DNA from: Candidatus Egerieousia sp.
GTDB taxonomy: Bacteria; Bacteroidota; Bacteroidia; Bacteroidales; UBA932
NCBI GenBank assembly: GCA_036804445.1
Contig: DAIRSJ010000002.1
Location: 2,025-66,024, forward strand
DNA length: 64,000 bases
Direction: 5' to 3'
How positions within the stretch are numbered: the stretch's first letter is position 1; each line of letters opens with the position of its first letter. Position numbers and translations under genes: made by a program. Below, one piece after another: positions 850 to 53,290 of the stretch. The notes under the pieces are model-generated. The model did not search any database. It was not told the DNA's origin and saw only the letters and a list, made by a program, of their open reading frames with translations.

Positions 850-2994
850 TCATAAATTAAATCTTATCCCTGCTTTTATATTGAGCAGGGATTTTTTTTC
901 TCCTATCTTGTCGTTTGCAACGCATTTATAATTTTCTCCCAACTTTGCAAACAGCTCCAGCCATTTTGTAACACGTACCTGAGCAGTTGCGTAAAAATTA
1001 AAGCCGCGGCCGTACATCAACGCAGATGTGTACGTCATGGGCAAGTCATATTCAACAGCATACAAACGTCCGCTCCAACTATTTGCAGAATAATAAGTGC
1101 CGCAAAGATTAATAACCAGATGGGCAAATCTAATATTCGGCTGCAAAGCAAAAGCATAACTATTCATACTGTTATACTCCCCTTTTGCACTAAAACTAAA
1201 CCATTTTAAAACTCTGATTTTCACAATGGTCTTTTCTAGAAACACATTAGAAATGCTTGTCGTTTGTAAACGGCTGTAAGACAGGCGCTCGGAGACACTT
1301 AAGCTTCCCTTTAAATACTCAAATTTTACGTACGCTTTAATTGAAGAGGATGCCGAATTAATGTTAAACCTCGCCCACGGATAGTAAACATAATCTGTTC
1401 CAGCAGACATCTTTAAATTTCTAAAAATCCCGCCGTAAATTCTTAATGCGCATCCGTTCTGATTTGAACAAGAGGAAGTTGTTGTATATGCTCCCGCATG
1501 AGGATTTATATAACTCTTTGAATAACTGCGCATTAAAAAATTAATTTTCCATCCTCCGCTAAGTTGTGCGGAGCCTCCGGCCACAACGGCATATCCGGAA
1601 AGTTTTTCCCTGTCGGGAGAACTGTAAGCCGCCTCCCCAAAAATTCTTATCCCTCCGATAACCGCATAGAAATCGGCAGCGCAGTTCCAATGGAAATTAT
1701 CATAAATCTGATATCTGTTATAATCTTTTACACTTCTTCCGTTAATCTTATCATAACTGTAGCCGGCAAAAGAGACACCTATCTTAATTTTATTAAACAA
1801 AGCCGTAAGGTACGCTCCTGCAACTGTCTCATGCATTGTACCTTTTGTCCGCATTAAAGATTCAGAATCATGTACTCCACCGGAGATTAATGAAGTATAA
1901 CTTTTACCGTCCGTAGAAAGCCTTGCATCAATACCTTTGTATGAACCAAGAAGAGAAAACGTTAATCTGCCACATGAAATTTGAGCAGCCGCCCCGCGTA
2001 AAAAATTGTTCTCATCCGATGATGTGTAGGGAGAGACAACCTCTCCTCTTTTATAAAAACCGTATGCCTCCTCAGCCCCCTGCAAATTAAATGAATTCCA
2101 AAGAGTTAATCCCTGCCCAAATCTTGCGGAAAAATCTCCCGTAATTAAATTATCTATTGTAAAAGTTCTAAGTTCTGCAACATCTGTCCCTGAATTATTT
2201 TTCTTTAAACTATCGGCATCTGACACCTTATTCCTTCTTGTAAAATTCATATTGCGCAAAGCAATGCTGAATGAAATAAAATCTCCGCACGGAATTCTGT
2301 TTTTTTCAACCGCGGGTTCACCGGCATCCTTCTCAATTAAAAAAGCCGCCTCCACTTTGTTCAGCCATACCGTTCTGTATCTCAACTGAATATAATCCGG
2401 CGTTCCAAATGATTTTTTTGAATCTGTTGTATTTCCCGACAGCTGTACTTTCCTGGAATATTTGGAATATATTGTAGTGCTGCAGTCTTTAAAAAAATTC
2501 CCCGGCTGCAAACCCGCCTCACCAAAGTAAACAAAAGGACGTAAGAGATTGACAACCTCTTCATCGAATCCGTTAAGCAACGAGAGTTCCGGATAAGATA
2601 TGACGGCCCCGTGGAGTTTTATATACTCCAGCAAAACCGTTATCTGAAAATCAGTAAGAATTATAAGCCTCTGCAAATCAGCGCGGGAAGCATTATTAAT
2701 ATTAAGAGGCGAGCGTAAAAGTTTTTCAAAATGCTCCATTATTTCCTCGACATTTGAATCTGAAAAACCGGTAGCTCCACCCGCTTCCGCATTTGTCCCC
2801 GCTGCTTCCGACGCCCCGTCCAAATTGCGATTACAATAATAATCAACTATTTGCTCAATAATTTTTTCTTTCCCGTCTCTCATCAGCAGTTGAGGCAACT
2901 CCTTTACAGTCTGGGAAAACAAGACTGTCGGAAGACAAAAAATAATAACGGCAATTAACAATACACACCTGCTCCGCAAGCCTGGACTTTTCAT
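850..2994 (-). CDS. Secreted helix-hairpin-helix (ComEA-like) domain protein with a large beta-rich C-terminal domain
   Basis: 714 aa with an N-terminal signal-like segment. The HhH region is NINNASRADLQRLIILTDFQITVLLEYIKLHGAVISYPELSLLNGF. The following ~550 aa are rich in alternating aromatic/Gly/Ser and end in ...KAGIRFNL, which looks barrel-like. Confidence 0.6.
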   Translation of the reverse strand: MKSPGLRSRCVLLIAVIIFCLPTVLFSQTVKELPQLLMRDGKEKIIEQIVDYYCNRNLDGASEAAGTNAEAGGATGFSDSNVEEIMEHFEKLLRSPLNINNASRADLQRLIILTDFQITVLLEYIKLHGAVISYPELSLLNGFDEEVVNLLRPFVYFGEAGLQPGNFFKDCSTTIYSKYSRKVQLSGNTTDSKKSFGTPDYIQLRYRTVWLNKVEAAFLIEKDAGEPAVEKNRIPCGDFISFSIALRNMNFTRRNKVSDADSLKKNNSGTDVAELRTFTIDNLITGDFSARFGQGLTLWNSFNLQGAEEAYGFYKRGEVVSPYTSSDENNFLRGAAAQISCGRLTFSLLGSYKGIDARLSTDGKSYTSLISGGVHDSESLMRTKGTMHETVAGAYLTALFNKIKIGVSFAGYSYDKINGRSVKDYNRYQIYDNFHWNCAADFYAVIGGIRIFGEAAYSSPDREKLSGYAVVAGGSAQLSGGWKINFLMRSYSKSYINPHAGAYTTTSSCSNQNGCALRIYGGIFRNLKMSAGTDYVYYPWARFNINSASSSIKAYVKFEYLKGSLSVSERLSYSRLQTTSISNVFLEKTIVKIRVLKWFSFSAKGEYNSMNSYAFALQPNIRFAHLVINLCGTYYSANSWSGRLYAVEYDLPMTYTSALMYGRGFNFYATAQVRVTKWLELFAKLGENYKCVANDKIGEKKSLLNIKAGIRFNL
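866..899 (+). terminator. Intrinsic terminator after the LysM gene
   Basis: A 9-bp stem (ATCCCTGCT / AGCAGGGAT) with a 9-nt loop is followed by T8. It overlaps the last codons of the convergent minus-strand gene. Confidence 0.7.
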
Positions 2995-4293: not shown

Positions 4294-4311
4294 TATCTGT
4301 CGCGACAGATA
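4294..4311. repeat. Perfect 18-bp palindrome TATCTGTCGCGACAGATA (core TCTGTCGCGACAGA), copy 1 of 3
   Basis: Read directly. It starts immediately after the hpt stop codon and ends 30 nt before the adk ATG. It is followed by an A/T tract (AAAAAATTTAAAA). Confidence 0.9.
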
Positions 4312-6631: not shown

Positions 6632-7684
6632 ATGCTTTTCATATCGGACACTTCAACGGATCCTTACAGAAACCTTGCGGAAGAGGAATATCTTCTTAAG
6701 TATAAATCGGAACCTATCTTCAGACTTTGGAGAAATGATAACGCAATAGTTGTTGGAAAGTATCAAAACGCGCTGGCTGAAATCAATGTCGATTATGTAA
6801 AAGAACATAACATTAAAGTTGTAAGAAGACTTACAGGCGGCGGAGCGGTTTTCCATGATTTGGGGAATATTAATTTTACTTTTATTCAGGAGAGGAATCC
6901 AAAAGAAGATACAGGAGAGATGTTCCGCAAGTATACGGTTCCTATCTTGGAAGCACTTAATTCTCTGGGAATTAAAGCATATCTGGAGGGAAGAAATGAT
7001 TTGCTGATAGACGGAAAGAAATTCTCCGGCAATGCCGTTTGCATCTGGAATAACAGGGCACTGAAACACGGAACTTTGCTGTTTGATTCCTCAATGAACG
7101 GAATCTCCGCGGCATTAAAAAGCAGGCCGGAAAAATTCATTGGCAAAGCGGTACAATCTAACCGGAGCAGAGTGACAAACATTAAGGAACATCTTGTTAA
7201 TCCCGACAGATTATCTTCATCAGATGCAATTTCTGCGCAAGACCTTGTCATACCGCATAATCCGGATGTGTTGTGGTTTAAAGATTTCCTTGGAGACTAT
7301 GTCTGCAAACACTGGGAGGGGAAAGATAGTGCGGTAAAATATGAACTGAGCAAGGCGGAAAATGAGGCTATCGAGACGCTTAAAAATATTAAGTACTCAA
7401 AAGATTACTGGAACTACGGCAACTCTCCTGAATATAGTCTGAGCAACATAAGAAAATTTCCCGGAGGAATTCTGGAATTCTACTTCACTGTAAATGACGG
7501 TATTATATCGGATCTGAATATAAGGGGAGATTATTTTTTCACGGCGCAGACAGAGGATTTCATCAAAAAAATGATTGGAACCGTTCATACCAAAGAGGCT
7601 ATTACAAAAAAAGTAAGCACCTTAAATATAGATGCTTACTTTGCCAATATAACTTCTGATGATATTGTGAACATGTTTTTTTAA
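6632..7684 (+). CDS. lplA: Lipoate-protein ligase A
   Basis: 350 aa with RRLTGGGAVFHDLGNINFTF and the KFSGNA lysine motif typical of LplA. Confidence 0.8.
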   Translation: MLFISDTSTDPYRNLAEEEYLLKYKSEPIFRLWRNDNAIVVGKYQNALAEINVDYVKEHNIKVVRRLTGGGAVFHDLGNINFTFIQERNPKEDTGEMFRKYTVPILEALNSLGIKAYLEGRNDLLIDGKKFSGNAVCIWNNRALKHGTLLFDSSMNGISAALKSRPEKFIGKAVQSNRSRVTNIKEHLVNPDRLSSSDAISAQDLVIPHNPDVLWFKDFLGDYVCKHWEGKDSAVKYELSKAENEAIETLKNIKYSKDYWNYGNSPEYSLSNIRKFPGGILEFYFTVNDGIISDLNIRGDYFFTAQTEDFIKKMIGTVHTKEAITKKVSTLNIDAYFANITSDDIVNMFF

Positions 7685-8081: not shown

Positions 8082-9017
8082 TCAACCTCCTTTTTTTGCT
8101 CTTGGATGAGCAGTTAAATATACTTTTTTTAACTGTTCAAAAGAGTTATGCGTATAGACTTGTGTTGCAGCCAGCGACGAATGCCCGAGGACCTCCTTAA
8201 TGCTGTTGAGGTCAGCGCCGTTGTTAAGCAGCGCGGTAGCAAAAGAATGCCTCAGCACGTGCGGCGATTTCTTTCCGCTAAACCCTTTCAAACCTGTCAA
8301 TTCTTTCTTTACTACATCATTAACAAACTTAAGGTAAATTTCACCGCCTTTGTTTGTCAAGAAAAAAGCATCAGTTTCACAATGAGGAAAGGTCTTATTT
8401 CTTAATTGTAAATATACTAAAAGATTCTCTAAAAGAGAAGGGATTACGGGAATCTCCCGTTCCTTATTGCCTTTTCCGACAATTTTAAATATACTGCGGC
8501 TGATATCCAGATTCCCCGTAGTTAATCCTGCCACTTCAGCCCGCCTCATACCCGTATCGTAAATCAGCATCACAATAGTCCTGTCTCTTAACGCCTCATA
8601 ATTGTCACCTAAAATAGGTCTCTTCAAATATCCGGCCACGGCGTCCTGCGTGTAAAATTCAGGCAGCCGCTTTTTCTCTTTAGGTCTGAAAATTTCCTTC
8701 ACGGGATTACTCTGCAAAACATTCTGTTTCAGCAGATAATTACAATAAGTACTTAGACCGCTTAACATTAAATTTATTGTCTCCGGGTTAAGCCCCTTCT
8801 CCATACCGTCCGCCACAAAACCGCGCAGGTTCAAAGGCGTAAGCAGCTTAAGCCGCTCCTCCTCCGTACCAGGCATCTCAGTTCCGGAGTCCTTTAAACT
8901 GTCGCGATACATATACTCATAAAATCGCTTAATAGTCTCTTTATAAAGAGATTGCGTCCGCGGAGAATACCGCTTCCGCACCCTGAGAAAATCTATAAAA
9001 TCTTCCGCCCTGCCCAT
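8082..9017 (-). CDS. Tyrosine site-specific recombinase, XerC/XerD-like
   Basis: 311 aa with catalytic signature RRAE...HVLRHSFAT...LGHSSLAATQVYTH. It sits between rpsU and hpf with no flanking repeats. Confidence 0.8.
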   Translation of the reverse strand: MGRAEDFIDFLRVRKRYSPRTQSLYKETIKRFYEYMYRDSLKDSGTEMPGTEEERLKLLTPLNLRGFVADGMEKGLNPETINLMLSGLSTYCNYLLKQNVLQSNPVKEIFRPKEKKRLPEFYTQDAVAGYLKRPILGDNYEALRDRTIVMLIYDTGMRRAEVAGLTTGNLDISRSIFKIVGKGNKEREIPVIPSLLENLLVYLQLRNKTFPHCETDAFFLTNKGGEIYLKFVNDVVKKELTGLKGFSGKKSPHVLRHSFATALLNNGADLNSIKEVLGHSSLAATQVYTHNSFEQLKKVYLTAHPRAKKGG

Positions 9018-11394: not shown

Positions 11395-13524
11395 ATGAGA
11401 CCAAAATTTTCAGAAATATTATATAAAGACAACAGCGCCCCTATTAAGTTGAAAGAGAGCGAGTGGCTGACACCGGAAAAAATAGAGGTTAAGACAAACT
11501 ATACGGAGAAAGATTTAGAAGGAATGGAGCATTTAAGTTATGCCGCCGGAATTCCTCCTTTCTTAAGAGGCCCTTACAGCACAATGTATGTTCAAAGACC
11601 TTGGACCGTAAGACAATACGCAGGTTTCTCCACGGCAGAAGAATCCAATGCGTTCTACAGAAGAAACCTTGCAGCGGGACAGAAAGGTCTGTCGGTTGCA
11701 TTTGACCTTCCAACACACAGGGGATATAATGCGGATAATCCGAGAGTTGTTGGTGATGTGGGAAAGGCCGGCGTAAGTATCTGCTCGGTAGAAGATATGA
11801 AAGTTCTGTTTGACCAGATTCCTCTTGGGAAAATGTCCGTATCAATGACAATGAACGGAGCCGTTCTTCCAATCCTGGCTTTTTATATAGTAGCAGGTCT
11901 TGAGCAGGGAGTGAAACTGGAAGAAATGCAGGGAACTATACAAAATGATATCCTTAAGGAGTTTATGGTACGCAATACTTACATCTATCCGCCTGAGTTT
12001 TCCATGAAAATAATAGGTGATATTTTTGCGTACACTTCCAAGTACATGCCTAAGTTCAACTCCATTTCAATCTCCGGCTACCACATGCAGGAGGCGGGCG
12101 CAACCAACGATATTGAGATGGCATACACACTTGCAGACGGCCTTGAGTATTTGAGAACCGGTATCAATGCAGGCATAGAGGTGGACAAGTTTGCACCGCG
12201 TCTGTCTTTCTTCTGGGCCATCGGCACCAATCACTTTATGGAGATTGCCAAGATGCGCGCAGCAAGATTATTGTGGGCAAAACTGGTAAACCGGTTCCAT
12301 CCAAAGAGCACTAAGTCTCTGTCGCTAAGAACACACTGCCAAACCAGCGGATGGTCATTAACGGAGCAAGATCCTTTTAATAATGTTGCAAGAACCTGCG
12401 TTGAGGCAATGGCGGCAGCACTGGGGCATACACAGTCTCTTCATACAAATGCACTGGACGAGGCAATTGCACTCCCGACGGATTTTTCCGCACGTATTGC
12501 AAGAAATACCCAGCTTTACATTCAGCAGGAAACTGCGGTTTGCAAATCAATTGACCCATGGGCAGGCTCATATTACATTGAATCTCTGACAAATGAACTG
12601 GCTCACAAAGCATGGGCCCACATTCAGGAAATTGAGAAACTTGGCGGAATGGCAAAGGCAATTGAGACCGGTATTCCCAAGTTGAGAATTGAGGAGGCAG
12701 CCGCACGCAAGCAGGCAAGAATTGACTCCGGAGAGGAGACAATCATTGGTCTGAACAAGTACAGACTGGAGCATGAGGACCCTATCAAGATTCTTGACAT
12801 TGATAATACTAAAGTGCGCAATCAGCAAATTGCCAGACTGGAAGAGCTAAGAAAGAATAGAGACAATCAGAAAGTTGAACAGTGTCTTGCAGCAATCACA
12901 GAGGCCGTAGAAACCAAGAAAGGCAACCTGCTTGAACTTGCAGTTGAGGCGGCAAAAGCGCGCGCATCTCTTGGAGAAATCTCAGATGCATGTGAGAAAA
13001 TTGTTGGAAGATACACAGCAAAAATTCGTATGAACGTAGGCGTATATTCATCTGAAGTTAAGAAAGATGCAGAGTTTGAGAAAGCCAAGAAAATGGTTGC
13101 GGACTTTGCAAAGAAAGAGGGCCGTCAGCCAAGAATCATGATTGCAAAACTTGGTCAGGATGGTCACGACAGAGGTGCCAAAGTTGTTGCAACCGGCTAC
13201 GCTGATTGCGGCTTTGATGTAGATATGGGACCGTTGTTCCAGACACCTGCGGAGGCTGCAAAACAAGCTGTTGAGAATGACGTCCACATCATCGGAATAT
13301 CGTCCCTTGCAGCGGGCCACAAGACTCTTGTACCTCAGGTAATTAGTGAACTTAAAAAACTCGGCCGCGAGGATATAATGGTTACAGTGGGCGGAGTTAT
13401 CCCGGCACAAGATTATAAAGTCCTTTACAAGGACGGTGCGGCTGCAATTTTTGGTCCCGGTACTAGAGTATCCTATTCTGTAATTAAAATGATGGAGTTG
13501 CTAAATCAAAAATTCAAAAAATAG
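11395..13524 (+). CDS. mutB: Methylmalonyl-CoA mutase large (alpha) subunit
   Basis: 709 aa with [27 protein letters not shown] and the B12-binding [11 protein letters not shown] (DxHxxG) motif. Confidence 0.95.
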
Positions 13525-16035: not shown

Positions 16036-16704
16036 TTACTCCTCAAAGGCAGTGAGTCCATGCTTAATTCCAAAAGCCACACATTCGGCAATTGTTTTTA
16101 AACCGAGTTTATTTTTAATCCTGTCCTTGTTGGTCTCGACAGTACTTTGATTTATATTCATCATAACGCCTATTTCCTTATTGCTGAAGCCGTCCGTAAC
16201 ATGCTGCAAGACTTCCATCTCCTTTTTACTCAAAGAAAATGGCTTTATCTTTTCAATGTTTTTTTCCCCCCCGAACATGTTTTCCAAAATCTCTTTTCCT
16301 ATTGTATCTCCAAAAAAAAGACAATTCCCCTTGTAAACATTACAGATTGCGTCTACCACCAGTTCCGGCAAGGAATCTTTAGCTAAATAAGCTTTGGATT
16401 TTGCCAGCAACGCACGGTATATGTATCGTCCGTTTTTAAACTGCGAAAGCATCATTGTCCTGACGGAAGGGTAATTATCCCTTATTTTCTCCGCGAGTTC
16501 CAAACCGTCTTCTCCCTCTTTCATGCAAACATCAATCGTTGCCACATCTATGTCCGGGTGCTGTTTTAATTGTTCCATCGCCTCATCAGGACAGCAGGCC
16601 TGATAAACGGAACCTATTCTATCATCACATTTCAGTACCGTTTGGAGGCCTATGATGTGAAGAGGCGAATCGTCTACTATAATAAGATTAATCTTTTTGT
16701 TCAT
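16036..16704 (-). CDS. Response regulator, NarL/LuxR family
   Basis: 222 aa. The receiver domain has DD at residues 11-12 and the acceptor Asp in VATIDVCM. The C-terminal LuxR HTH reads LSKKEMEVLQHVTDGFSNKEIGVMMNINQSTVETNKDRI. Confidence 0.85.
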   Translation of the reverse strand: MNKKINLIIVDDSPLHIIGLQTVLKCDDRIGSVYQACCPDEAMEQLKQHPDIDVATIDVCMKEGEDGLELAEKIRDNYPSVRTMMLSQFKNGRYIYRALLAKSKAYLAKDSLPELVVDAICNVYKGNCLFFGDTIGKEILENMFGGEKNIEKIKPFSLSKKEMEVLQHVTDGFSNKEIGVMMNINQSTVETNKDRIKNKLGLKTIAECVAFGIKHGLTAFEE

Positions 16705-19700
16705 TACAGATACTCTATAGAAATAGTGAAAATACTCCCTTGTCCTATCTTACTTTCAACAAATATACTCTCTCCCAATTTATTTAGCAACTCATTCACA
16801 ATAAGCAGACCAAGGCCCGTCCCTCTTTCTCCTGCAGTTCCGGACATCGAATTTCCGGGGCTAACCCTGAATAAGTTTTCAACGACATCCCTGCTCATTC
16901 CGGCACCAACGTCTTTCACGGATAACAATATCCTATGATCCGAGTTTGGAAAAGACTTGGAAAAAATTAATATTTCACCTCCTCGCGGGGAGAACTTTAC
17001 AGCATTACTCAACAAATTTCTCAAAATTGTTGTAAGCAAATTCAAATCCGTATGTACCTTAATATCAGCCCGTACCGTATTATGTATTAATACTGATTTA
17101 GCTTCAGCCTGATCAGAAACTTCCCGGATTGCCGAATTGACTATTCCTTCAAGCAAACAATCACTGAAGATCGGTCTTATTATCTTCCTTTGACCCAAAA
17201 CCCACATCAACAAAGAGTCTAATAATTCTGCCGTATTGGAAGAAGCCTTGCCGAGTTCTTCCAAACATTGTCCCAATTCCACATCATTCATTCCATGAAA
17301 ATTTTCTAACAGACTATGCGTCAGGTTCCTTATACCATAAACCGGATTTTTAAGGTCATGTGAAATTATAGAAAAAAACTTATTCTTCGATTCCACTTCT
17401 TCTTTGAGTTCCATGGTCCTTTTTTCTACAACTCTTTCTAATTTTTCATTCTTTTTGCGCAAAGTTCTCTCTCTGTACGATATCAATAGATAAGTCAGGA
17501 AACAAAAACAGATTACAAACAACAGAATAAAAGGCCAAGAAAGGAGCAAGGGCGCGGCTACTCTTATCTTAAGTTCAAATTTACCCGTTCCCGCCAAAAA
17601 TCCCGCATCCGCCACTTCACCGGCCCTGCCGGGCCATTTCCCCATAGCATTAGTGCACTGAATTTCAATTGTATATGCACCGGACGGAATCTTAGTGTAT
17701 TTTGCACTTAAAGACGGATACCGCACATAATTCCATCCCTTTTCGTAACCTTTTAGCCTGTAGCGATACTCTATGTATTTTCCGGTCACATAATCGCTTG
17801 AACCAAAATTGAAAGAAATGGTATTATCCTTATGATGCAACTTCTTGATTTTTCCGTACCCGGCCAAATCAGAATACAACAAATGTTCGCCGCACCGCAT
17901 ATCGGTAACCAGAATGGACGGAAAATGAACATCCGCCAACAAACTGTCGGGATTAAAAATATTAAAGCCGGCATCACCGCCAAATGCAAGTGACCCCTTA
18001 GGGGAAATATTACGCCCGCCCACATTTAAAGAGCAGGAAGCCCTTGTCGTATAGTTATCCTGCAAAAATCCAAGATACTTATGCAATACACCGATTCTGC
18101 CAAGTTTAGCCGAATAACAATATATACCGTCATTTGTGGAAACCCACATTCTATGATGTCTATCCTGTTCTATACTCATTATTTTCAAACCTTGCATGCC
18201 TTCTACCCTCTTCCCGATGGATTTTGTATTAAAATCATTGAACCGCTCACTACCGGGAAAAGACCATATACTTGATGAAGAAAACTTGGGAATGGATCTC
18301 ACCGGAACATAATAAAGTCCTGAGCCGGTTCCAACCCACATATTACCGTATATATCTCTTTTCAAACATGTTATATTGTTATCCGGCAATGAATTTGAAT
18401 CCCATGTATATGAACCGTAACGGCGCACTTTATCGGTAGCGGGATTTATCACGTTCACTCCGGCCTCCGTAGTGCCGTACCAAATATTGCCGAAGATATC
18501 CTCGGTTATGCAACTGGCCAGTCTTGAACTAACCGAATATTCATCCTTGTTGTAAAGAAGAAAAAATTTGCCTGTTTTTTTGTTGAATATCTCCATTCCG
18601 GCCTTGGTCCCAACAAAAAACAAAGTGTCATCTATCCCGTAGCAACCTCTGACATCATTGCTCGCTATGGAGACAGCATTCTCCGGATTATTAAAATAAC
18701 TGGCTCTAAGTTTATAATTACTACTTTCCACAACATAAAAACCATCGCTAGTGCTAAGATACAGTCTCCCGTCTCCGGCATTATAGATATCATTTATATG
18801 TTTGCCGGATAACCATTTACGCCCGGCCAAATTAACTTCCTCTTCTTTTATTTTTCTCTGACGGCTAATAATATGTTTCAAAATTTCCTCCGGCATGACC
18901 TTTAAGGGTTTAATATCATCCGTAGCAAGATCATGAACATAATTTTTGCCGCCGAATTGTATATAATTTTTCCCGCCCGCACAATAAATTATTTCATATC
19001 CTGACGTTCTCATTGGCAATTTCAACTGCCCGGGTTTCAGATAATTATAATACATATTCAAAATGCCGGCATTGGGATATCCGGGTGGAATTTTCTGAGT
19101 AAACTGGACAAATCTCTTGCTTTTAAGATCACAATAACCATAATATTTGCCTCCGGCAATATAGATGCGATTAAGCGCCCTTGAAAAAGTCGGAGCGGTT
19201 GTTTTGTCGTTAGGCATCATGGAACGCTGATAATAATTTTTTCCGGTAAAGGCCATAGAAGTCCTGTCGAATTGATTGAGACCTATTCCCTCCCATGTTG
19301 CAGCCCAAAAATTTCCGTGACTGTCTTCAAAGAAATCAGAATACCAATTCGAACCGAAGAAATTTCCTCCGAACAGATCACAATAATCTCCCGGAACTTC
19401 ACTCCAGAGAGCATAACGTCTTATCTCCTTCGTTTTCTTATTGTAGACATTAAAGCCTGCATGCGCCCAAAGACCGATATATATTATGCCTTTTGAATCC
19501 TGATAAAGACATGAAACATTATCCTCGTTCACATATGGATTCCTAATGATCCCCTGTCCGTGCAACCTATACTGCCGGAGCGTATATTTCTCTTTCGCGA
19601 CGGTTTTATTATCCAGCTTCCCGTAAAACAAACGGTATTTTATATTTCCAAACCTCCCAGATGACAAATCAAGAGTATCTACCCCATTATCCTTGGTTCC

Positions 19701-22567: not shown

Positions 22568-22603
22568 GATGCTTTAAAGTAACCCTTATTAAATTCATAA
22601 GGG

Positions 22604-22633
22604 CCTGTACCAAAGAAGGTACGGGTCTTTTTA
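22604..22633 (+). terminator. Intrinsic terminator / attenuator in the metY leader
   Basis: Stem CCTGTACC/GGTACGGG (one G-U pair) with loop AAAGAA, followed by TCTTTTTA. It lies 94 nt upstream of the metY ATG and 190 nt downstream of the hydrogenase stop. Confidence 0.6.
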
Positions 22634-22692: not shown

Positions 22693-22706
22693 TCTGTCGC
22701 GACAGA
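22693..22706. repeat. Perfect palindrome TCTGTCGCGACAGA, copy 2 of 3
   Basis: Read directly. Its context is AATAATATCTGTCGCGACAGAAAAATTTTTAAAAAAAAGATATG, and it ends 20 nt before the metY ATG. Confidence 0.9.
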
Positions 22707-24027: not shown

Positions 24028-25098
24028 ATGGAGAAAAGAGTCCTTAAATACAACAAATCTTTTAAGCTGGAGAGCGGAGAATCCCTGCCGGAACTGGAGA
24101 TATGTTACCATATATCAAAAGATTTCCCCAAGGAGAGCAAAGTCATTTGGATAACTCACGCGCTTACAGCAAATTCAGACCCGTCCGAATGGTGGAATAC
24201 TCTGGTTGGAAAGGGAAAGTTTTTTGACCCGCGCAAGTACACTATTGTCTGCGCAAATTTGCTCGGAAGCTGCTACGGCTCCACCGGTCCCGCCTCCGTA
24301 AACCCCAAAACGGGTAAGCCATATCTGCTTGGTTTTCCAAAGGTTACGGTAAGGGATGAAGTTAATTTTTTGGAGTTATTGCGCAATCACCTTGGAATCA
24401 AAAACATAGACTTAATTATTGGCGGCTCGGTTGGAGGATATCAGGCCATAGAGTGGAGCATCATGTATCCCGATGTAATCAAAAATGCAGTGTTCATTGC
24501 AACCGGTGCGCGCGTTACACCTTGGGAGACGGCATTTAATGAGAGCCAAAGAATGATACTGTATGCGGACGAATCATTTGCAAATGAAGAGAGTATAAAA
24601 GGCGGTCTCAAGGGAATGGGAGCCGCACGCACAGTCGCGCTTATCTCTTACAGAAGCTGCAAGGGATACAATTCAACGCAGCAGGACGCAGATTCCGATT
24701 CCGTTTGGGAACACAGGGCATCGTCATACCAGCGCCATCAGGGAGAAAAATTAGAGAAAAGATTCAATGCGTATTCTTATCTTGAAATGGTCAATCTTTT
24801 TGACAGTCATAATGTCGGCCGCGGACGCGGAGGCGTGGAAAAGGCTTTGGCAAAAATTAAAGCAAAAGTTTTGTGCATTGGCATTGACAGCGATATTTTA
24901 TTTCCGTGGAGTGAACAAAAATTTATTGCAGAACATACCGGCTGCCGCGGCAAAAAAATCAAAAACACAAATAACAGGCACGGTAAATTTATTAAGATAA
25001 AATCAGATTTTGGTCACGACGGTTTCTTATTGGAATACAAACAAATACAAGAAGCTGTCGGGAAAACATTTAAAAATATTTTTTATGCAGGTACTTAA
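24028..25098 (+). CDS. metX: Homoserine O-acetyltransferase
   Basis: 356 aa alpha/beta hydrolase with the nucleophile elbow GGSVGG and C-terminal GHDGFLLE. There is a Lys/Asn-rich insertion just before the catalytic His. Confidence 0.85.
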   Translation: MEKRVLKYNKSFKLESGESLPELEICYHISKDFPKESKVIWITHALTANSDPSEWWNTLVGKGKFFDPRKYTIVCANLLGSCYGSTGPASVNPKTGKPYLLGFPKVTVRDEVNFLELLRNHLGIKNIDLIIGGSVGGYQAIEWSIMYPDVIKNAVFIATGARVTPWETAFNESQRMILYADESFANEESIKGGLKGMGAARTVALISYRSCKGYNSTQQDADSDSVWEHRASSYQRHQGEKLEKRFNAYSYLEMVNLFDSHNVGRGRGGVEKALAKIKAKVLCIGIDSDILFPWSEQKFIAEHTGCRGKKIKNTNNRHGKFIKIKSDFGHDGFLLEYKQIQEAVGKTFKNIFYAGT

Positions 25099-27511
25099 AT
25101 TCGGTGGCAGCTCCGTTGCAAATGCAGAAAACATAAACAGAGTGATTGCCATTGTAAAAAAGAAAATCAAGAGAGATAAAACCGCAGTGGTTGCATCGGC
25201 AATTAGCGGGGCAACAGATGCGCTGATTCAAATAGGAAAGAGGGCACAACTGCAGGATGATTCTTATATCCTGCAGATTGAAGCATTATACCAAAGACAT
25301 ATTGAACTGATAAAAGAACTTGTTCCGGAGGAGGACTCCGCTCCGATAAAGAGCGAGTGCAAAGAGTTATTTGGAAAACTCAGAGAAATTTGCAACGGCG
25401 TCTATTTGCTAAAAGAACTTAGCCCGCTCAGTCTGGACCATATAATGAGTTTTGGAGAGATGCTCTCAACCAAAATTATCAGCTCCAAGCTTAAATCCCT
25501 GAACATAAGCCACGTATGGAAAGATTCCCGCAGCCTTATCAAGACTGAGATATCAGCCGGGGTTAATGTTATCAAAAAAGAAGAGACTGCAAATAACATT
25601 GAAAAATATTTCAATTCCGCACAAAATAATTTGTATATCCTTCCCGGCTTTATTGCATCGGATGACCAGGGGAGAACTACAACATTGGGGAGAGGCGGTT
25701 CCGATTACACAGCCTCTATTTTAGCCGTTGGAACACAGGCGAGAGTTCTGGAGATCTGGACAGATGTAAACGGCATGATGACGGCGGATCCACGCATTGT
25801 ACCGGAGGCCAAACCTATAAGAAACATATCATATAAAGAGGCATTGGAGCTCTCACATTTTGGGGCAAAAGTCGTATACCCCCCTACCATACAACCTGTT
25901 GTTAAACAGGGCATTCCCATATATGTAAAAAACACTTTTGACCCGGAAGACGGCGGCACTGTAATAGAAAAAAATCCGCCGGAGGGGATTGGAAAAATCA
26001 GAGGCATTTCCAGCTCTGACAAAATTGCTCTGCTGAGCATGGAGGGAAGCGGAATGGTTGGCGTACCCGGCTACTCCAGCAGATTGTTTGATGTACTTTC
26101 TCAAAACAATATCAACATAATTCTCATTACTCAGGCATCATCGGTTCACACAATGTGCATTGCAATACCTGAGTCTGACGCAGCAAAAGCAAAGAAGGCG
26201 GCGGATGAATTATTTGCCTATGAAATCTCTCTTGGAAAAGTAGATCCGCTAAAAGTTGAGAAAGGTTTCTCTATTATATCACTGGTCGGGGACGACCTTA
26301 AAAATCAGAGCGGTGCAAGCGGCAGAATGTTTGACGCATTAGGCCGTGAAGGAATAAACATCCGCGCAATTGCACAGGGTTCATCAGAAAAAAATGTTTC
26401 CACGGTTCTTCATACGGAAGATGTTAAAGCTGCAATCCGCGCCATCCATAAAGAATTTTTCAGCGGAAAAGGGAGAAGAATTAATTTGTTCTTTGCAGGG
26501 TGCGGAACAGTTGGTTCGGCACTGATAGATATGATAACCAGACAGCATGACTTCATATCCGATCAGCTAGGCAAAGATTTGGTTATCTGCGGATTATCAG
26601 ACAGTAAAAATTATATTACGGCTCGCGACGGGGTAAAAATCACTGCAGGAAAAAAGGAAAATGACAACACACGGGAACTGTCAAAAGACGATATCAAAAA
26701 AATTCTTGCAGCCGGAGAGAAAAATTCAGGCAGCAACTATATGGAAAAAATATGCGATCTGAATCTAAGTAATTCCATATTTGTGGACTGCACCTCAAGT
26801 AAATCAATTGCAGGTACATACGTGGATTTGTTCCATCACAAAATTGCAGTAGCAACCTGCAACAAAATTGCAAATTCACTCTCTTATGATTCATATAAAG
26901 AGCTATTTGATGTTGCAAGAACCGAGGGGACAAAGTATAAATATGAAACAACCGTTGGAGCCGCACTGCCCGTTATAAGCACTGTAAAACAGATTGTTAA
27001 CAGCGGGGATAAAATAAGGAAGATAGAAGGGATACTGTCGGGAACTCTAAATTATTTATTAAGCAATTACAGTGGAAAAGATTTTTCAGCGCTGGTGGAG
27101 AAGGCGAGAAAACTTGGTTACACGGAACCCGACCCTAGAACAGATTTAAGCGGAACGGATGTACTCAGAAAATTTTTGATTTTAAGCAGAGAGGCAGGAT
27201 TCAAACTGGATATCAATGATTTAAACTATAAGCCTTTCTTTGAGGGAAAATATGAACCCCGCTTAAAGAAACTTTATGAAGAGGCGACAAAGGCGGAGAA
27301 AAAATTAAGATTTATTGCAAAACTGGATCCTAAAATTTTTATCGGAATAGAGGCGGTGGATGCAAAACATCCGTTCTACGGCGTGGAGGGCAGTGATAAC
27401 GCAATCATCTTAACCACAGAATTTTATCCGCAAGGTATTATGATACGCGGAGCAGGCGCCGGAGCAAGACAGACTGCCTCCGGATTGTTCAATGATATCC
27501 TGTCCATTTAA
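25085..27511 (+). CDS. thrA: Bifunctional aspartokinase / homoserine dehydrogenase
   Basis: The start is taken at MQVLKFGGSSVANAENI (25085), because the tracked ORF start at 25010 lies inside metX. It contains aspartokinase, ACT repeats and an HSDH domain (NLFFAGCGTVGSALI). It overlaps metX by 14 nt. Confidence 0.85.
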   Translation: MQVLKFGGSSVANAENINRVIAIVKKKIKRDKTAVVASAISGATDALIQIGKRAQLQDDSYILQIEALYQRHIELIKELVPEEDSAPIKSECKELFGKLREICNGVYLLKELSPLSLDHIMSFGEMLSTKIISSKLKSLNISHVWKDSRSLIKTEISAGVNVIKKEETANNIEKYFNSAQNNLYILPGFIASDDQGRTTTLGRGGSDYTASILAVGTQARVLEIWTDVNGMMTADPRIVPEAKPIRNISYKEALELSHFGAKVVYPPTIQPVVKQGIPIYVKNTFDPEDGGTVIEKNPPEGIGKIRGISSSDKIALLSMEGSGMVGVPGYSSRLFDVLSQNNINIILITQASSVHTMCIAIPESDAAKAKKAADELFAYEISLGKVDPLKVEKGFSIISLVGDDLKNQSGASGRMFDALGREGINIRAIAQGSSEKNVSTVLHTEDVKAAIRAIHKEFFSGKGRRINLFFAGCGTVGSALIDMITRQHDFISDQLGKDLVICGLSDSKNYITARDGVKITAGKKENDNTRELSKDDIKKILAAGEKNSGSNYMEKICDLNLSNSIFVDCTSSKSIAGTYVDLFHHKIAVATCNKIANSLSYDSYKELFDVARTEGTKYKYETTVGAALPVISTVKQIVNSGDKIRKIEGILSGTLNYLLSNYSGKDFSALVEKARKLGYTEPDPRTDLSGTDVLRKFLILSREAGFKLDINDLNYKPFFEGKYEPRLKKLYEEATKAEKKLRFIAKLDPKIFIGIEAVDAKHPFYGVEGSDNAIILTTEFYPQGIMIRGAGAGARQTASGLFNDILSI

Positions 27512-28859: not shown

Positions 28860-28883
28860 TCCCGACAGGATTAACTGTCGGGA
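28860..28883. repeat. Inverted pair of the abundant 9-mer (TCCCGACAG-gattaa-CTGTCGGGA), forming a 9-bp stem and 6-nt loop
   Basis: Read directly. It is intergenic and ends 19 nt upstream of the parE ATG. No T-tract follows. Confidence 0.9.
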
Positions 28884-28902: not shown

Positions 28903-30807
28903 ATGAATAAGGGATACAGTGAGAATGATTTTGAAACCCTGGATTGGTATGAACACATCCGGAGAAGACCGGGTATGTATTTGGGAAAGCTTGGCAACGG
29001 CAGTGAACAGGATGACGGTATCTACGTGCTGTTTAAAGAGATTGTAGATAATGCGGTGGATGAGTTCCATGAAGGGTGGGGCAAGACCGTTGACATTACT
29101 TTGAATGAAGAGACTAAAGAGGTGAGCGTCAGGGATTACGGAAGAGGAATCCCTTTTGGCAAACTTTTGGACGCAGTGGGAAAGATGAACACAGGCAGCA
29201 AATTTGGCAAGGACGGCTCTCTGGCTTACGGTAAATCGGTTGGTCTTAACGGTGTCGGAACAAAAGCCGTAAATGCCACATCTACACAATTTTACGTACA
29301 ATCTTTCATTGACGGCGACAGTTATTACGCATACTTTGAAAAGGGCGTCTTAATCCGCAAAGGCAAAGAGAAAGCAAAAGATGAAAAGGACGGAACCTTT
29401 GTAAGATATACCGCAGACGATGCTCTATATGAGGGATATAACTACAATCTGGAATTTATTGACACCATGCTTAAGAACTATGTTTATTTGAATATAGGTC
29501 TTACAATTAATTTCAACGGCAATAAATACAAATCTGAAAACGGACTGCTGGATTTGATAAACGACAATCTGTCCGAGACGCCGCTTTATGCCCCTATCCA
29601 TTTGACAGGCAAGGACATAGAAGTTGTCATCACACACTGCACGGAGACCGGAGAAAATATTTATTCATTTGTAAACGGGCAGAATACTTTTAACGGAGGC
29701 ACGCATCTTTCCGCATTTAGAGAGGGCGTAGGAAAAACCATCAAAGAGTTTTTCAAAAAAGATTTTGATCCAAAAGATGTAAGAGAAGGAATGGTTGCAG
29801 CAATATCAATAAGGGTGGGCAACCCCGATTTTGCAAATCAGACAAAGACCATGCTTAACTCAAAGCTCACTGATACAGTGGCAAACGGTGGCATTCCGGT
29901 TAGAGATTTCATAATGAACTTCCTTGCTTTTGACCTGGACAATTATTTGCATAAAAATCCTCTGACAGCAGACCCGCTGCTTAAGAAAATTCTTGCCAGC
30001 GAGAAAGAAAGAAAAGAACTTGCCAGTTTTCAAAAAGCAAGGCGCTCAAAGAAGACAAGTCTTAATAATGAGAAACTTAAGGATTGCAGCGTCCATTACG
30101 GAGACAACAATGAAAGAGCAGAAGAGACTACTATTTTTATCACAGAGGGAAATTCTGCAAGCGGTACAATCACAAAGACCAGAGACACTAAGACGCAAGC
30201 GGTTTTCAGCTTGAGAGGTAAACCAAAAAACACCTTTGGCAACTCAAAAAAAGTTATCTACGATAAGAAAAATGCAGAACTTAATTTGCTTCAAGCGGCT
30301 CTTGGTATTGAAGAAGACATTGACAATCTGCGCTATAACAAAGTTGTAATTGCAACAGATGCGGATGTTGACGGAATGCATATCAGAATGCTTTTGCTGA
30401 CATTTTTCCTTCTTTTCTATCCGGAACTGGTCAGACGCGGACACGTTTATATCCTGCAGACTCCGTTGTTCAGAGTAAGAAAAAGAAAGAAAGACGGAGC
30501 AATGGATACCCGCTACTGCTACTCGGAGGCAGAGAAACAAGATGCAGTCGTCAAACTTGGAAAAGGCCCGGAAGTCACTCGTTTCAAAGGACTTGGAGAA
30601 ATATCAGCCAATGAATTCAAAGACTTTATCGGTGAAGGAATGCGTCTGGACAGAGTGCGTCTGAATAAAGATGATTCAGTGCATGAAATGCTGGAATTTT
30701 ATATGGGCAATAATACTCCCGACAGACAAAACTTTATTAAGGACAATCTTAGGGAAGACGTTATAATGGAAGACATTATAAACACCGGCACGGAAACAGA
30801 AGAGTGA
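28903..30807 (+). CDS. parE: DNA topoisomerase IV subunit B (type IIA topoisomerase ATPase/TOPRIM subunit)
   Basis: 634 aa with a GHKL ATPase (EIVDNAVDE, GLNGVG) and a TOPRIM domain (ITEGNSA, ATDADVDGMHI). The N-terminus resembles Bacteroidota ParE rather than GyrB. Confidence 0.8.
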   Translation: MNKGYSENDFETLDWYEHIRRRPGMYLGKLGNGSEQDDGIYVLFKEIVDNAVDEFHEGWGKTVDITLNEETKEVSVRDYGRGIPFGKLLDAVGKMNTGSKFGKDGSLAYGKSVGLNGVGTKAVNATSTQFYVQSFIDGDSYYAYFEKGVLIRKGKEKAKDEKDGTFVRYTADDALYEGYNYNLEFIDTMLKNYVYLNIGLTINFNGNKYKSENGLLDLINDNLSETPLYAPIHLTGKDIEVVITHCTETGENIYSFVNGQNTFNGGTHLSAFREGVGKTIKEFFKKDFDPKDVREGMVAAISIRVGNPDFANQTKTMLNSKLTDTVANGGIPVRDFIMNFLAFDLDNYLHKNPLTADPLLKKILASEKERKELASFQKARRSKKTSLNNEKLKDCSVHYGDNNERAEETTIFITEGNSASGTITKTRDTKTQAVFSLRGKPKNTFGNSKKVIYDKKNAELNLLQAALGIEEDIDNLRYNKVVIATDADVDGMHIRMLLLTFFLLFYPELVRRGHVYILQTPLFRVRKRKKDGAMDTRYCYSEAEKQDAVVKLGKGPEVTRFKGLGEISANEFKDFIGEGMRLDRVRLNKDDSVHEMLEFYMGNNTPDRQNFIKDNLREDVIMEDIINTGTETEE

Positions 30808-31536: not shown

Positions 31537-33132
31537 ATGAGAGTGATGAAGAGAATTTTGTTGACAGCAGTTTGCATCATTTGTGCAATAAGTTCATTTG
31601 CACAAACTTATTCCCTTGAGGAGTATGAGACGTTTGCACTCCAAAACAGCAAGACTGTAAAAATTTCTCAAGAAAGAATCCGGCTGGCTGAGAATTTAAG
31701 ACAGGCTGCATTCACGCAGTTTCTTCCCAGTTTCCAAGCAGTTGGAGCATATACATGGAATCAGAAAGACTTATCTCTGATTTCCTCGGATGCAATGCTT
31801 CCGGTTGGAACCAAACTGGCCAATGGAAGTTTTGGTTTCACTGCTGATCAGATAAGCAACTCCTGGACTGTCGTGAACGGAGTTACAATGCCGGTTGACG
31901 CAAACGGAAACGCCTTTAATCCATACACTAATCCGGAAAAAATACAATGGAAACAATATGCGTTGCTTCCAAAGAGTTCCCTTACATATGATATTCAGAA
32001 TGTATTTGTAGGAGGCATAGGCTTTACGCAGCCGATTTTTTTGGGAAATAAAGTGAGAGAGCTTTACAACATTTCCAAGAGCAACGAGGAGATAGCAAAA
32101 CTTGCCAACAACAATGAGGAGGAAAATCTTGTTTTGGAAGTTGATCAATCATACTGGACAACGGTTTCTCTTATTAACAAAAAGAAACTTGCCCAAAAAT
32201 ATGTAGATCTTCTGGAAAAACTTTGCAAAGATGTACAGGCAGCTAAAGACCAGGGAGTTGCAACCAAAGGAGACTTGCTTAATGTTAGGGTAAAACTAAA
32301 TGAAGCCAATCTGGCGCTTACCCGCGCAACTGATGGCGTTGAACTCTCAAAGATGTCCCTGTTCCGCGTGTGCGGTCTGGATTTGAACGGAAACTTCGGG
32401 CTTGCAGATGAGGACGTTTCTCCAAAAAATGCAAAAGAGCTGGAGGCAGGATACGATGTTAATCAGGCAATAGACAACAGATTTGAAATAAGACAGTTAG
32501 AGGAAATTATAAAAATTTCCAAAAGCAATGTTAATATTGCACGCAGCCGTTTTATGCCAAATATTGTAGCAACGGGAAATTATATCACAACAAATCCAAA
32601 TTCATACAACGGGTATGAAACAAAGTTTGGTGGAATGTTTACAGCCGGGGTTGCAGTAACCGTTCCTATTTTCCATTTCGGGGACAGGACTTATACATTG
32701 CGCGCGGCAAAGCATGAATTCAATATTGCAAATTACAGAATTGACCAGGCAAAAGAGCTTATTAACCTGCAGGTTACGCAAGCAAACTTTAATGTGAGAG
32801 AAGCAAACAAAAAACTGGAGTCCGCTCTGAGCAATATAAGTGCGGCGGAGGAAAATCTTAAGCTTGCCAACATCTCCTATAAAGAAGGACTTATAAGCGT
32901 AACGGATTTGCTTGGTGCTCAGACGGCATGGGTATCCGCTCAGTCGGATAAAATTGATGCAGGCATAAATGCAAGAATGACAGAGCTTTACTTAAGAAAA
33001 ACTGTCGGGATAACAAATATTAAAGAGGGACAGAGGGCAAAAGATGACGGCGTCATCAAAGAGGGCCCGGTTAAGATGATTAAGGAGCCTGCGGAAAAAA
33101 CCGTTAAATCTGCAAGTGAAAACAACAGATAA
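31537..33132 (+). CDS. TolC-family outer membrane efflux protein
   Basis: 531 aa with a signal peptide and two OEP repeats of coiled-coil character. The start could instead be 31546. Confidence 0.85.
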   Translation: MRVMKRILLTAVCIICAISSFAQTYSLEEYETFALQNSKTVKISQERIRLAENLRQAAFTQFLPSFQAVGAYTWNQKDLSLISSDAMLPVGTKLANGSFGFTADQISNSWTVVNGVTMPVDANGNAFNPYTNPEKIQWKQYALLPKSSLTYDIQNVFVGGIGFTQPIFLGNKVRELYNISKSNEEIAKLANNNEEENLVLEVDQSYWTTVSLINKKKLAQKYVDLLEKLCKDVQAAKDQGVATKGDLLNVRVKLNEANLALTRATDGVELSKMSLFRVCGLDLNGNFGLADEDVSPKNAKELEAGYDVNQAIDNRFEIRQLEEIIKISKSNVNIARSRFMPNIVATGNYITTNPNSYNGYETKFGGMFTAGVAVTVPIFHFGDRTYTLRAAKHEFNIANYRIDQAKELINLQVTQANFNVREANKKLESALSNISAAEENLKLANISYKEGLISVTDLLGAQTAWVSAQSDKIDAGINARMTELYLRKTVGITNIKEGQRAKDDGVIKEGPVKMIKEPAEKTVKSASENNR

Positions 33133-35480: not shown

Positions 35481-36668
35481 ATGAAAGAGTTCAGAAGACA
35501 ATATTTGCAGAATGCCGTTAGACAAATGACCACCATTTTTTGGAATGAAGTGATCAGGATTTTTACGGATAGCGGTGTAATGCTGATATTATTTATTGCA
35601 GGACTGGGTTATCCTCTACTTTACAGTTTTGTATATTATCAAGAGTCCGTAAGTGAGATCCCTGTCGCGATAATAGATAATGATGCCTCCGCCTACAGCA
35701 GAAAATTTTCCAGAGAACTGGATGCCACAAAAGAGGTACAGCTAAGGCGTTGCATAAATATGAACGAGGCTGAGTATTTAATGGGGCGCAGAAAAGTTCA
35801 TGCGATTATTGTACTTCCAAAAGATTTTGAAAAAACCGTCCTGGACGGACAGGAGCAGGCAACCGTCTCCGTATATGTGAATATGACCAGCTTCTTTGTC
35901 TACAAAAGTGTGGCTTTTGCAATAAACTTCACAATGCTGCAGGAGAATAAAGACATAGAAATACATCGGTATGAAGCGGCGGGACAAACACAACAGCTCG
36001 CCCTCCAAAGTGCAGACCCTGCTCCGTATGAGGCTCAATTCCTGTTTAATCCCGGTAACGGATTTGCAAGTTTCTTTGTGCCGGGTGTTATGATTTTAAT
36101 TATTCACCAGCTGCTTTTCCTGGGAATAGGAATGCTTGCCGGCACAGTCAGAGAAGAGAATAAAAATCACAAATTATTTGAAAATCAGATAGATAAAAAA
36201 AGGATATACAGGGTCATTTTTGGAAAAGGTCTGGCCTACTTTTTAATATACGCTATCTTTTCCGCCTACATTACAGTACTGATACCCAGATGGTTTGGCT
36301 TACCGCATCTTGCAAGTCCATGGGATATCTACAGGCTGCTGCTGCCATTCCTGCTTGCAGTAATATTTTTCTCGCTTACATGCTCCGTTTTTATCAAAAA
36401 CAGAGAGACCGGCATGGTTATGTTCCTGTTTTTCAGTGTTATACTGCTATTCTTGAGCGGTGTCACATGGCCAAGGAGTAACTTTCCGGTGTTCTGGAAA
36501 GCATTCTCATACCTGTTCCCGGCAACATTTGGCGTTCAGGGGTACCTGAAACTCAATACGTTCGGAGCCGAATTCGGCCAGATACTTCCGGAATTCGTAG
36601 CCCTGTGGACGCAGGCCATCGTCTATTTTATAACAGCCTGCTTCTCATTCAGGTATATCAACAAGTAA
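35481..36668 (+). CDS. ABC-2 type transporter permease (paralog)
   Basis: Same architecture as the preceding gene (PVAIIDNDAS loop, C-terminal TM bundle). The start is taken at ATG 35481. Confidence 0.75.
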   Translation: MKEFRRQYLQNAVRQMTTIFWNEVIRIFTDSGVMLILFIAGLGYPLLYSFVYYQESVSEIPVAIIDNDASAYSRKFSRELDATKEVQLRRCINMNEAEYLMGRRKVHAIIVLPKDFEKTVLDGQEQATVSVYVNMTSFFVYKSVAFAINFTMLQENKDIEIHRYEAAGQTQQLALQSADPAPYEAQFLFNPGNGFASFFVPGVMILIIHQLLFLGIGMLAGTVREENKNHKLFENQIDKKRIYRVIFGKGLAYFLIYAIFSAYITVLIPRWFGLPHLASPWDIYRLLLPFLLAVIFFSLTCSVFIKNRETGMVMFLFFSVILLFLSGVTWPRSNFPVFWKAFSYLFPATFGVQGYLKLNTFGAEFGQILPEFVALWTQAIVYFITACFSFRYINK

Positions 36669-36671
36669 AAT

Positions 36672-37253
36672 TTATTTAGATTTTTTTTCTGCAGTCATTG
36701 CAGCATTAAAGCAATGGCGGCAAAGGGGTTCGTATTTGTCCTGTTCTCCCAGCATTACAAGTTTGTCTCCGCCGGAGATACGGTGGGAGTGACGGGCTGG
36801 TTGTCCGCACTTGACGCAGATTGCATGAACTTTTGTAACATGCTCTGCAACAGCCATCAAAGCAGGCATTGGACCAAAAGGCTTACCTAGATAATCCATA
36901 TCCAGACCGGCGCATATTACACGCACTCCCCTATCGGCCAGCTGATTGCAGACATCAACTATTCCGTCATCAAAAAATTGAACTTCATCAATGCCAATTA
37001 CATCTACATCTGTCGCGAGCAATAAAATATTTTGTGAAGAATCCACATTATTGGACTCAATAGAATTCCTATCATGAGACACAACATCCTTATCTGAATA
37101 TCGTACATCTAAGGCAGGTTTGAAAATCTGCACCCGCTGATGCGCAAAATTAGCTCTTTTTAAGCGCCTTATGAGCTCCTCTGTCTTGCCGGAAAACATA
37201 GAACCGCAGATGACCTCAATCCATCCCGCCATATTTGTTCTTTCTTCAAACAT
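36672..37253 (-). CDS. tdk: Thymidine kinase
   Basis: P-loop [11 protein letters not shown] and a C-terminal zinc ribbon (CVKCG...CRHC). The true start may be the MAGWIEV Met at 37232. Confidence 0.9.
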
Positions 37254-53276: not shown

Positions 53277-53290
53277 TCTGTCGCGACAGA
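53277..53290. repeat. Perfect palindrome TCTGTCGCGACAGA, copy 3 of 3
   Basis: Read directly. It starts immediately after the preceding stop codon and ends 13 nt before the next ATG. It is followed by AAAATTTTTAAAA. Confidence 0.9.

Follow-up and report, generated by a model that had tools for sequence, protein, structure and literature searches.

The DNA uptake sequence of natural transformation, called USS in Pasteurellaceae and DUS in Neisseriaceae, is probably the nearest known analogue of the word described here, and in its classical form it occurs about once per kb. In the portion of bioRxiv 10.1101/2025.10.24.684340 used here, sequence-tagged self DNA is described for Pasteurellaceae and Neisseriaceae alone, and the traits of USS and DUS comprise abundance, strand balance, preferred gene frames, spacer enrichment, characteristic flanks, inverted pairs, turnover by point mutation and dialects. 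Riemerella, according to the excerpt of PMC7965970 that is cited here, prefers its own DNA and has no defined tag. Another hyperabundant short word is HIP1 (GCGATCGC) of cyanobacteria, which according to the abstract of PMC13756078 is conserved across the phylum and recognised by methylases. The same abstract has HIP1 in genes and spacers with its function unsettled, in which it resembles the word of this study (PMC13756078). Chi and KOPS motifs are likewise over-represented asymmetric words, and they are read in one orientation. Their density is similar to that of the word in the genome considered here. The literature matches listed for the words themselves were unrelated papers only.

The window, that is the whole stretch of DNA analysed (64 kb), belongs to genome G000, an 82% complete MAG of an uncultured Egerieousia species (1.70 Mb in 133 contigs, 40.7% G+C). 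The DNA runs that contain this stretch come from anaerobic digesters, wastewater and similar sources. The palindrome found in it is real, non-random and conserved, yet it is not a gene-specific or stand-alone element.

The palindrome in the window and in the genome

Three palindromes are placed in the window as follows.

4294..4311, no strand: 18-base perfect palindrome TATCTGTCGCGACAGATA, with a plus-strand word at 4297-4305 and a minus-strand word at 4300-4308; 2 nt past the hpt stop and 32 nt ahead of the adk ATG
22693..22706, no strand: 14-base palindrome, 279 nt after the Fe-hydrogenase ORF and 20 nt before the metY-like ATG
53277..53290, no strand: 14-base palindrome, 0 nt after the mqnB-like stop and 13 nt before the ABC ATPase ATG

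The first-pass annotation had reported three identical 14-base palindromes, and the exact TCTGTCGCGACAGA is indeed present at 4296-4309, 22693-22706 and 53277-53290. Its extension of the first copy to 18 perfect bases (4294-4311) was also confirmed, and so was the negligible chance expectation: with up to 2 mismatches allowed, the mean over 100 shuffles was 0.12 matches, and none of them reached 4. The fourth match in the window is a near-palindrome with 2 mismatches at 60718-60731. The contexts described earlier largely hold. TAATA, TAATA and ATAAT stand immediately 5' of the three copies; two copies lie right at upstream stops, of an hpt-like ORF that ends at 4293 (2 nt gap) and of the mqnB-like ORF (0 nt); and an ATG follows all three at 13-32 nt (32, 20 and 13 nt for the copies at 4296, 22693 and 53277). 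The proposed gene names fit the Pfam families Pribosyltran (hpt), ADK, Cys_Met_Meta_PP (metY-like), PNP_UDP_1 (mqnB-like) and ABC_tran. The AAAATTTTTAAAA-like tract that had been counted as shared context drops out, being present after just 2-3 of the 12 exact genomic copies. It is an ordinary A/T-rich leader outside the element. A terminator-like hairpin with a T tail is found at 22599-22630 of the window, 3' of the Fe-hydrogenase ORF with some 60 nt between it and the second palindrome. A promoter scan with a sigma-70 model, which does not represent Bacteroidetes promoters, gave no match near 22693, a result to be given no weight.

Genome-wide, G000 holds 12 exact 14-mers, 26 with at most 1 mismatch, and 23 copies of the 12-base core CTGTCGCGACAG. 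Genes were called with a simple longest-ORF picker (1465 ORFs, 90% coding), which makes the coding and intergenic counts approximate. Intergenic positions take up 14 of the 23 cores, against 9.7% of the DNA (p = 2e-9), and most of these palindromes lie 8-56 nt before a start codon. Furthermore, 13 of the 14 intergenic palindromes stand between co-directional genes, compared with 63% of intergenic bases. The remaining 9 cores fall in called ORFs, 5 of them deep inside and 4 at 37-52 nt from the predicted start; the latter are probably start miscalls, with the true start further downstream. The genome-wide survey thus bears out an earlier expectation, that palindrome placement is non-random relative to genes (14/23 intergenic vs 9.7%). 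This placement is an outcome of coding constraint and no sign of a gene-specific role, since a word of 12-18 bases seldom fits a reading frame and is left mainly to short spacers. Two LPG_synthase_TM-like ORFs of equal length (G000 C29:672-1703 and C31:16907-17938) each carry a one-mismatch palindrome 577 nt from the start, and they are apparently paralogous copies or a duplicated contig.

Within the genus the palindrome is narrowly distributed. The 12-mer CTGTCGCGACAG is found in G000 (23 copies) and in the sister species G001 (19) and G047 (22), and it has 0 copies in the other 38 of the 41 genus genomes searched. At the hpt-adk junction, G000 has the palindrome in common with G047 alone, while the other genus loci displayed have short spacers without it. 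This comparison covers the genus loci that display hpt-adk, with 10 of 30 that show the other flank left out.

The hyperabundant word and its dialects

The 9-mer CTGTCGGGA had been called abundant, and in G000 it occurs 477 times, evenly on both strands (238/239). It is the most over-represented G+C-balanced 9-mer of this genome, with a 75-fold excess over expectation, whereas the reversed word used as a control has 4-5 copies per strand. Position 7 of the word is degenerate, as the single-base variants in G000 have G 477, C 117, T 85 and A 75 times. In addition, CCGTCGGGA (101 copies) and CTATCGGGA (93) are tolerated variants. With position 7 free, CTGTCGNGA reaches 754 copies, or about 1 per 2.3 kb; 560 are in ORFs (285 sense, 275 antisense) and 194 are intergenic, which is an enrichment in spacers that make up about 10% of the genome. 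The window has 34 word copies, compared with 0.79 in shuffles. Apart from those in the palindromes, they are the following.

28860..28883, no strand: spaced inverted pair TCCCGACAG-N6-CTGTCGGGA, fold -18 kcal/mol
1610..1618, plus: single word CTGTCGGGA
2434..2442, minus: single word CTGTCGGGA
7201..7209, minus: single word CTGTCGGGA
8899..8907, plus: single word CTGTCGCGA
13164..13172, minus: single word CTGTCGTGA
16134..16142, minus: single word CTGTCGAGA
17944..17952, plus: single word CTGTCGGGA
25055..25063, plus: single word CTGTCGGGA
27035..27043, plus: single word CTGTCGGGA
30717..30725, minus: single word CTGTCGGGA
31868..31876, plus: single word CTGTCGTGA
33002..33010, plus: single word CTGTCGGGA
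35662..35670, plus: single word CTGTCGCGA
37010..37018, plus: single word CTGTCGCGA
37608..37616, minus: single word CTGTCGGGA, opposite pair with 37662-37670, 54 nt apart
37662..37670, plus: single word CTGTCGAGA
38993..39001, minus: single word CTGTCGAGA
40495..40503, minus: single word CTGTCGAGA
42076..42084, plus: single word CTGTCGGGA, opposite pair with 42239-42247, 163 nt apart
42239..42247, minus: single word CTGTCGGGA
44714..44722, minus: single word CTGTCGGGA
48259..48267, minus: single word CTGTCGGGA
48868..48876, plus: single word CTGTCGGGA
60722..60730, minus: single word CTGTCGGGA, within the 2-mismatch near-palindrome 60718-60731
61137..61145, plus: single word CTGTCGGGA
63573..63581, plus: single word CTGTCGGGA

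The flanks of 548 coding copies have A at -2 in a fraction of 0.55 and A at the sixth base after the core in 0.64, giving an asymmetric extended word A-N-CTGTCG-N-GA-N5-A. The proposal that the palindrome is an overlapped inverted pair of the abundant word was upheld: a forward CTGTCG-C-GA and a reverse TC-G-CGACAG share TCGCGA, and CTGTCGCGACAG is the sole way of overlapping two inverted copies. The six-base overlap needs C at position 7 and is possible because this position is free in this lineage. The 18-mer meets both flanking A positions for both of its word copies, which accounts for its outer TA...TA (TAT...ATA). The palindrome is far above chance overlap: 46 of the 117 CTGTCGCGA occurrences fall within the 23 palindromes, whereas CAG comes after just 2 of the 637 words that have A, G or T at position 7. 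Because single words prefer G over C at this position, the primary unit is the single word, from which the palindrome derives. Exact inverted word pairs at most 60 nt apart number 13 in G000, and one of them folds at -18 kcal/mol with an A-rich tail. The spacing of words is near Poisson, with a longest gap of 12.6 kb and about 3.7 gaps over 12 kb expected. Mobile DNA was probably removed by MAG binning, and word-poor islands gave no foreign-DNA contrast.

Other species of the genus have the same word or a different one. CTGTCGGGA is hyperabundant, with 220-586 copies, in G001, G008, G010-G013 and G015, and it is at background (8-30 copies) in G003, G004, G009, G014, G016-G018 and twelve other families of the order. 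Another word, ATCGCNGAG, has 368-1049 copies in G003, G004, G014, G017, G034 and G045 and does not rise above background in species with CTGTCGGGA; G038 has 104 copies of it genome-wide. TATCGNGAT is enriched in G016. The word of G013 is YYRTCGGGA, with 586 copies of CTGTCGGGA genome-wide; its position 7 is fixed as G (CTGTCGAGA 3 vs CTGTCGGGA 52 in a 200 kb sample), and A again stands six bases downstream, in a fraction of 0.62. A fixed G forbids the overlapped palindrome, and this would explain why none occurs in G010-G013 and G015, position 7 having been read in G013. Among 37 genera of the family, YYRTCGGGA is hyperabundant in this genus alone and moderately raised in two others. CTGTCGNGA and the hyperabundant 9-mers of other species (ATCGCNGAG, TATCGNGAT, YYRTCGGGA) are mutually exclusive. 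Egerieousia species carry a clear set of word dialects, examples of which are at loci L040-L057 (ATCGCNGAG species), L071-L075 (G016) and L136-L145 (G013). No dominant word was seen in the samples of G009 (56 kb) and G038 (68 kb), which are too small for calling a species word-free. The G011 contigs C1-C4, each shorter than 2 kb, were left out.

Several observations bear on how the word is maintained. Coding copies in G000 sit in preferred frames. Leu-Ser-Gly tripeptides are written as CTGTCGGGA in 78 of 346 cases, compared with 1.2 expected by codon usage, and in the next frame the word is present in 114 of 301 [SPTA]VG[IMTNKSR] peptides. In an alignment of 338 kb of G000 to its sister species G047, word positions changed at 26/297 third codon sites against a background of 17008/102043 (p = 1e-4), and at 9/306 intergenic sites against 2981/30211 (p = 5e-6). 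These comparisons show that the word family is held at the DNA level, by selection or transmission bias, across genes and spacers; the same conservation signal is expected from any DNA-level function. The palindrome loci compared were 40 of the 41 from G001 and G047 (without G047:C56:150), 38 of them with a G000 counterpart, and the two G047 loci that have none (L087, L093) were left out of the counts. The site is intact in G000 at 16/19 loci from G001 and at 14/19 aligned from G047. Collinear substitutions, such as CTGTCACGACAG and CTGTTGCGACAG, account for all the differences between the sister species, and at one site G047 has the palindrome and G000 a single TCCCGACAG. No filled-versus-empty sites were seen among the 38 loci compared across G000, G001 and G047. 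To judge from these alignments, word copies are shown to arise and decay through point substitution, not insertion.

Candidate functions and the orientation of neighbouring words

With USS and DUS the word shares a length of 9-10 bases, hundreds of copies and equal strands, as well as preferred frames in genes, spacer enrichment, A/T-rich flank positions and inverted pairs in spacers. Dialects between related species and copies arising by point mutation are also common to both. The present word differs in its phylum (Bacteroidota), in its lower density and few terminator pairs, and in having one free internal base and an overlapped palindromic form. We lean, by our own estimate slightly, towards the palindrome being a compact two-strand form of a lineage-specific hyperabundant word, most likely a DNA-uptake-like self tag, and against its regulating adk, metY or the ABC ATPase. 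The word would then act as a self-recognition tag on double-stranded DNA, read by a sequence-specific DNA-handling machine, and the palindrome would present this tag facing both ways at a single site, for example to a dimeric receptor or an inverted-pair reader. Of the paired uptake-type signal suggested in the first-pass annotation, the overlapped pair of the abundant word is thus the option that the data support, while the uptake role is our interpretation. ComEC and DprA are present in G000, and ComEC is found in 38 of the 41 genus genomes whatever their word content. It is near-universal in the genus, and competence genes are therefore uninformative either way. In 14 of the 38 ComEC-family matches, 1-3 in-frame stops lie within the match (broken genes or matches that run past gene ends).

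The further difference from USS and DUS concerns orientation. Neighbouring exact words 60-2000 nt apart in G000 face the same way 45 times and opposite ways 122 times (p = 2e-9), whereas nine frequent control words have no orientation bias in this genome. Below 1 kb the counts are 15 same vs 77 opposite, and beyond 4 kb orientation is random. The ATCGCNGAG dialect of G045 and G004 repeats this below 2 kb (30 same, 61 opposite). Opposite-facing neighbours in the window include 37608/37662, 42076/42239 and 48259/48868, and within one gene the order antisense-then-sense occurs 46 times vs 20. Neighbours at 500-2000 nt are balanced for Pasteurellaceae USS (206 same, 214 opposite) and for Neisseria DUS (212 same, 218 opposite). 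In both of these samples an excess of opposite neighbours is seen at hairpin distance only and dies away by 200-500 nt; the control loci were seeded on inverted pairs, and any resulting bias would be towards opposite orientation. A strong opposite-orientation rule that extends to about 2 kb is thus lacking in the sampled USS and DUS at 500-2000 nt, which sets the system apart from known uptake sequences by one property or more. Taken as it stands in these counts, the rule shows that the word is not just one more USS. The palindrome is, on the same counts, the zero-distance case of a general rule by which the word stands in opposite-facing pairs.

The orientation rule leads to a tentative alternative, for which we see a real but minor chance. 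The words may be undescribed genome-wide oriented marks, and not uptake tags, that form obligatory opposite-facing pairs within about 2 kb, with the palindrome as a zero-distance pair. Their reader would be a machine that is dimeric, loops DNA or tracks along it, for example in repair, recombination or self-recognition of gene-sized segments, and the specificity would shift between sister species.

It is rather doubtful that the word is a Chi-like or novel oriented signal for a strand-specific DNA-tracking machine of repair or recombination, which would need both orientations within 1-2 kb and find both served by the palindrome. The strong opposite preference within 2 kb in G000, its repetition in the independent G045/G004 dialect and the depletion of same-oriented neighbours below 1 kb agree with such a signal, and 1 per 2-4 kb falls in the density range of Chi sites. 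AddAB-type PDDEXK_1 proteins are present in 39 of the 41 genus genomes, including G001 and G047. Against it, PDDEXK_1 and RecC family matches were not found in the 82% complete G000, and the Chi and KOPS motifs characterised so far are, to our knowledge, all biased in favour of the leading strand, whereas here orientation alternates locally. The per-contig orientation dispersion index of G000 is 0.56, more balanced than binomial, so that a Chi- or KOPS-type replichore skew is excluded as far as the short contigs, with ori and ter not located, allow. A 75-fold excess of a 9-mer and dialects at species level would also be unusual for Chi. Most genus species have a full-length AddAB-type PDDEXK_1 match (110-131 bits), and in G001, G047, G003, G004, G014, G034 and G045 it is shortened to profile positions 1-147 (62-79 bits).

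It is unlikely that the sites serve an abundant DNA-binding protein specific to the lineage, whether nucleoid-associated or a global regulator, with the palindrome as high-affinity dimer site and single words as weaker ones. In common with operators that bind dimeric transcription factors, the palindrome forms a perfect inverted repeat of 14-18 bases shortly before starts (14 of 23 intergenic, mostly 8-56 nt upstream); it is also conserved in three sister species, and inverted pairs are favoured. Unlike such operators, it has no coherent regulon: the 26 flanking proteins, whose Pfam families include Adk, a Cys/Met PLP enzyme, ABC ATPases, a symporter, FolD, RuvC, ClpX-like, SufE, OmpH and uridine kinase among others, have no common theme. 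The site is missing at the other hpt-adk junctions and from 38 of the 41 genomes of the genus, and 560 of the 754 words lie in ORFs in both orientations. Furthermore, G is preferred over C at position 7 of single words, which argues that the palindrome is not the optimum from which weaker sites decayed. The operator for a dimeric regulator proposed in the first-pass annotation is thus not upheld, with unrelated flanking genes, no conservation across the genus and a half-word that occurs 560 times inside genes.

Still less probable is a target of a DNA methyltransferase, enriched as in HIP1 by a linked mismatch-repair bias, with the palindrome centred on TCGCGA. The word is hyperabundant in genes and spacers alike, a CG-containing core TCG is common to all dialects, and several other CG palindromes are strongly avoided, which implies active restriction-modification pressure. 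However, the main word has 9 bases, is asymmetric and has a free position, and a search of G000 for the Vsr and MutH families gave no match. HIP1 is itself palindromic, whereas here the 23 palindromic sites are a minority and the word varies within one genus. The rare CG 6-base palindromes of G000 are CGATCG (6), CTCGAG (9), GTCGAC (16) and TTCGAA (36), with others at 200-500, and their rarity looks like restriction-site avoidance.

It is highly improbable that the palindrome works at cistron junctions as an RNA hairpin for processing, stabilising or terminating transcripts. The arrangement of 13 of the 14 intergenic copies between co-directional genes (63% of intergenic bases) agrees with it, and so does the fold of the segment 4284-4321 (-8.9 kcal/mol, z -4.0). 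The two remaining window copies reach just -4.5 and -4.4 kcal/mol and have A-rich tails, five palindromes lie deep in coding sequence, the word is equally frequent antisense in genes, and the real terminator upstream of metY is the separate hairpin at 22599-22630. The earlier hairpin suggestion accordingly fails on weak folds (-4.4 to -8.9 kcal/mol), no U tract and 5/23 copies deep in CDS; none of the three window palindromes has the stable G+C-rich stem with U tract of an intrinsic terminator. Six RNA runs, each covering a small share of the window as assembled contigs, were available and four were compared. The RNA contigs of these four metatranscriptomes are too sparse to reveal either read-through or transcript ends; the low-depth contig X15 (4029-4321) stops 12 nt beyond the first palindrome and counts neither as bridging it nor as mapping an end.

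That the palindrome is a mobile mini-element of the REP/REPIN or MITE type, spread by a RAYT-type transposase, is scarcely credible and appears largely refuted, for although G000 has three Y1_Tnp-like ORFs and most palindromes lie outside genes, presence/absence polymorphism is lacking among G000, G001 and G047 with collinear substitutions throughout, 74% of the words (560/754) lie within genes and recode peptides, and the Y1_Tnp ORFs have no flanking word pairs. These IS200/RAYT-like ORFs of 231-291 aa, two of them over the cut-off, are at G000 C33:15911-16783, C45:3955-4734 and C16:8103-8795, outside the window.

Meaning for the genus

For annotation, the palindromes are not to be labelled as operators or terminators of the adjoining housekeeping genes. 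An uncultured Bacteroidales genus of digesters and wastewater has a genomic imprint like that of USS and DUS, with dialects, plus an orientation rule absent from the classical systems. Should the words turn out not to be uptake tags, they would point to an unknown DNA-reading machine. If they do serve as uptake tags, as we lean towards, Bacteroidota would have its first example, and their dialects would predict barriers to gene flow between co-resident species.
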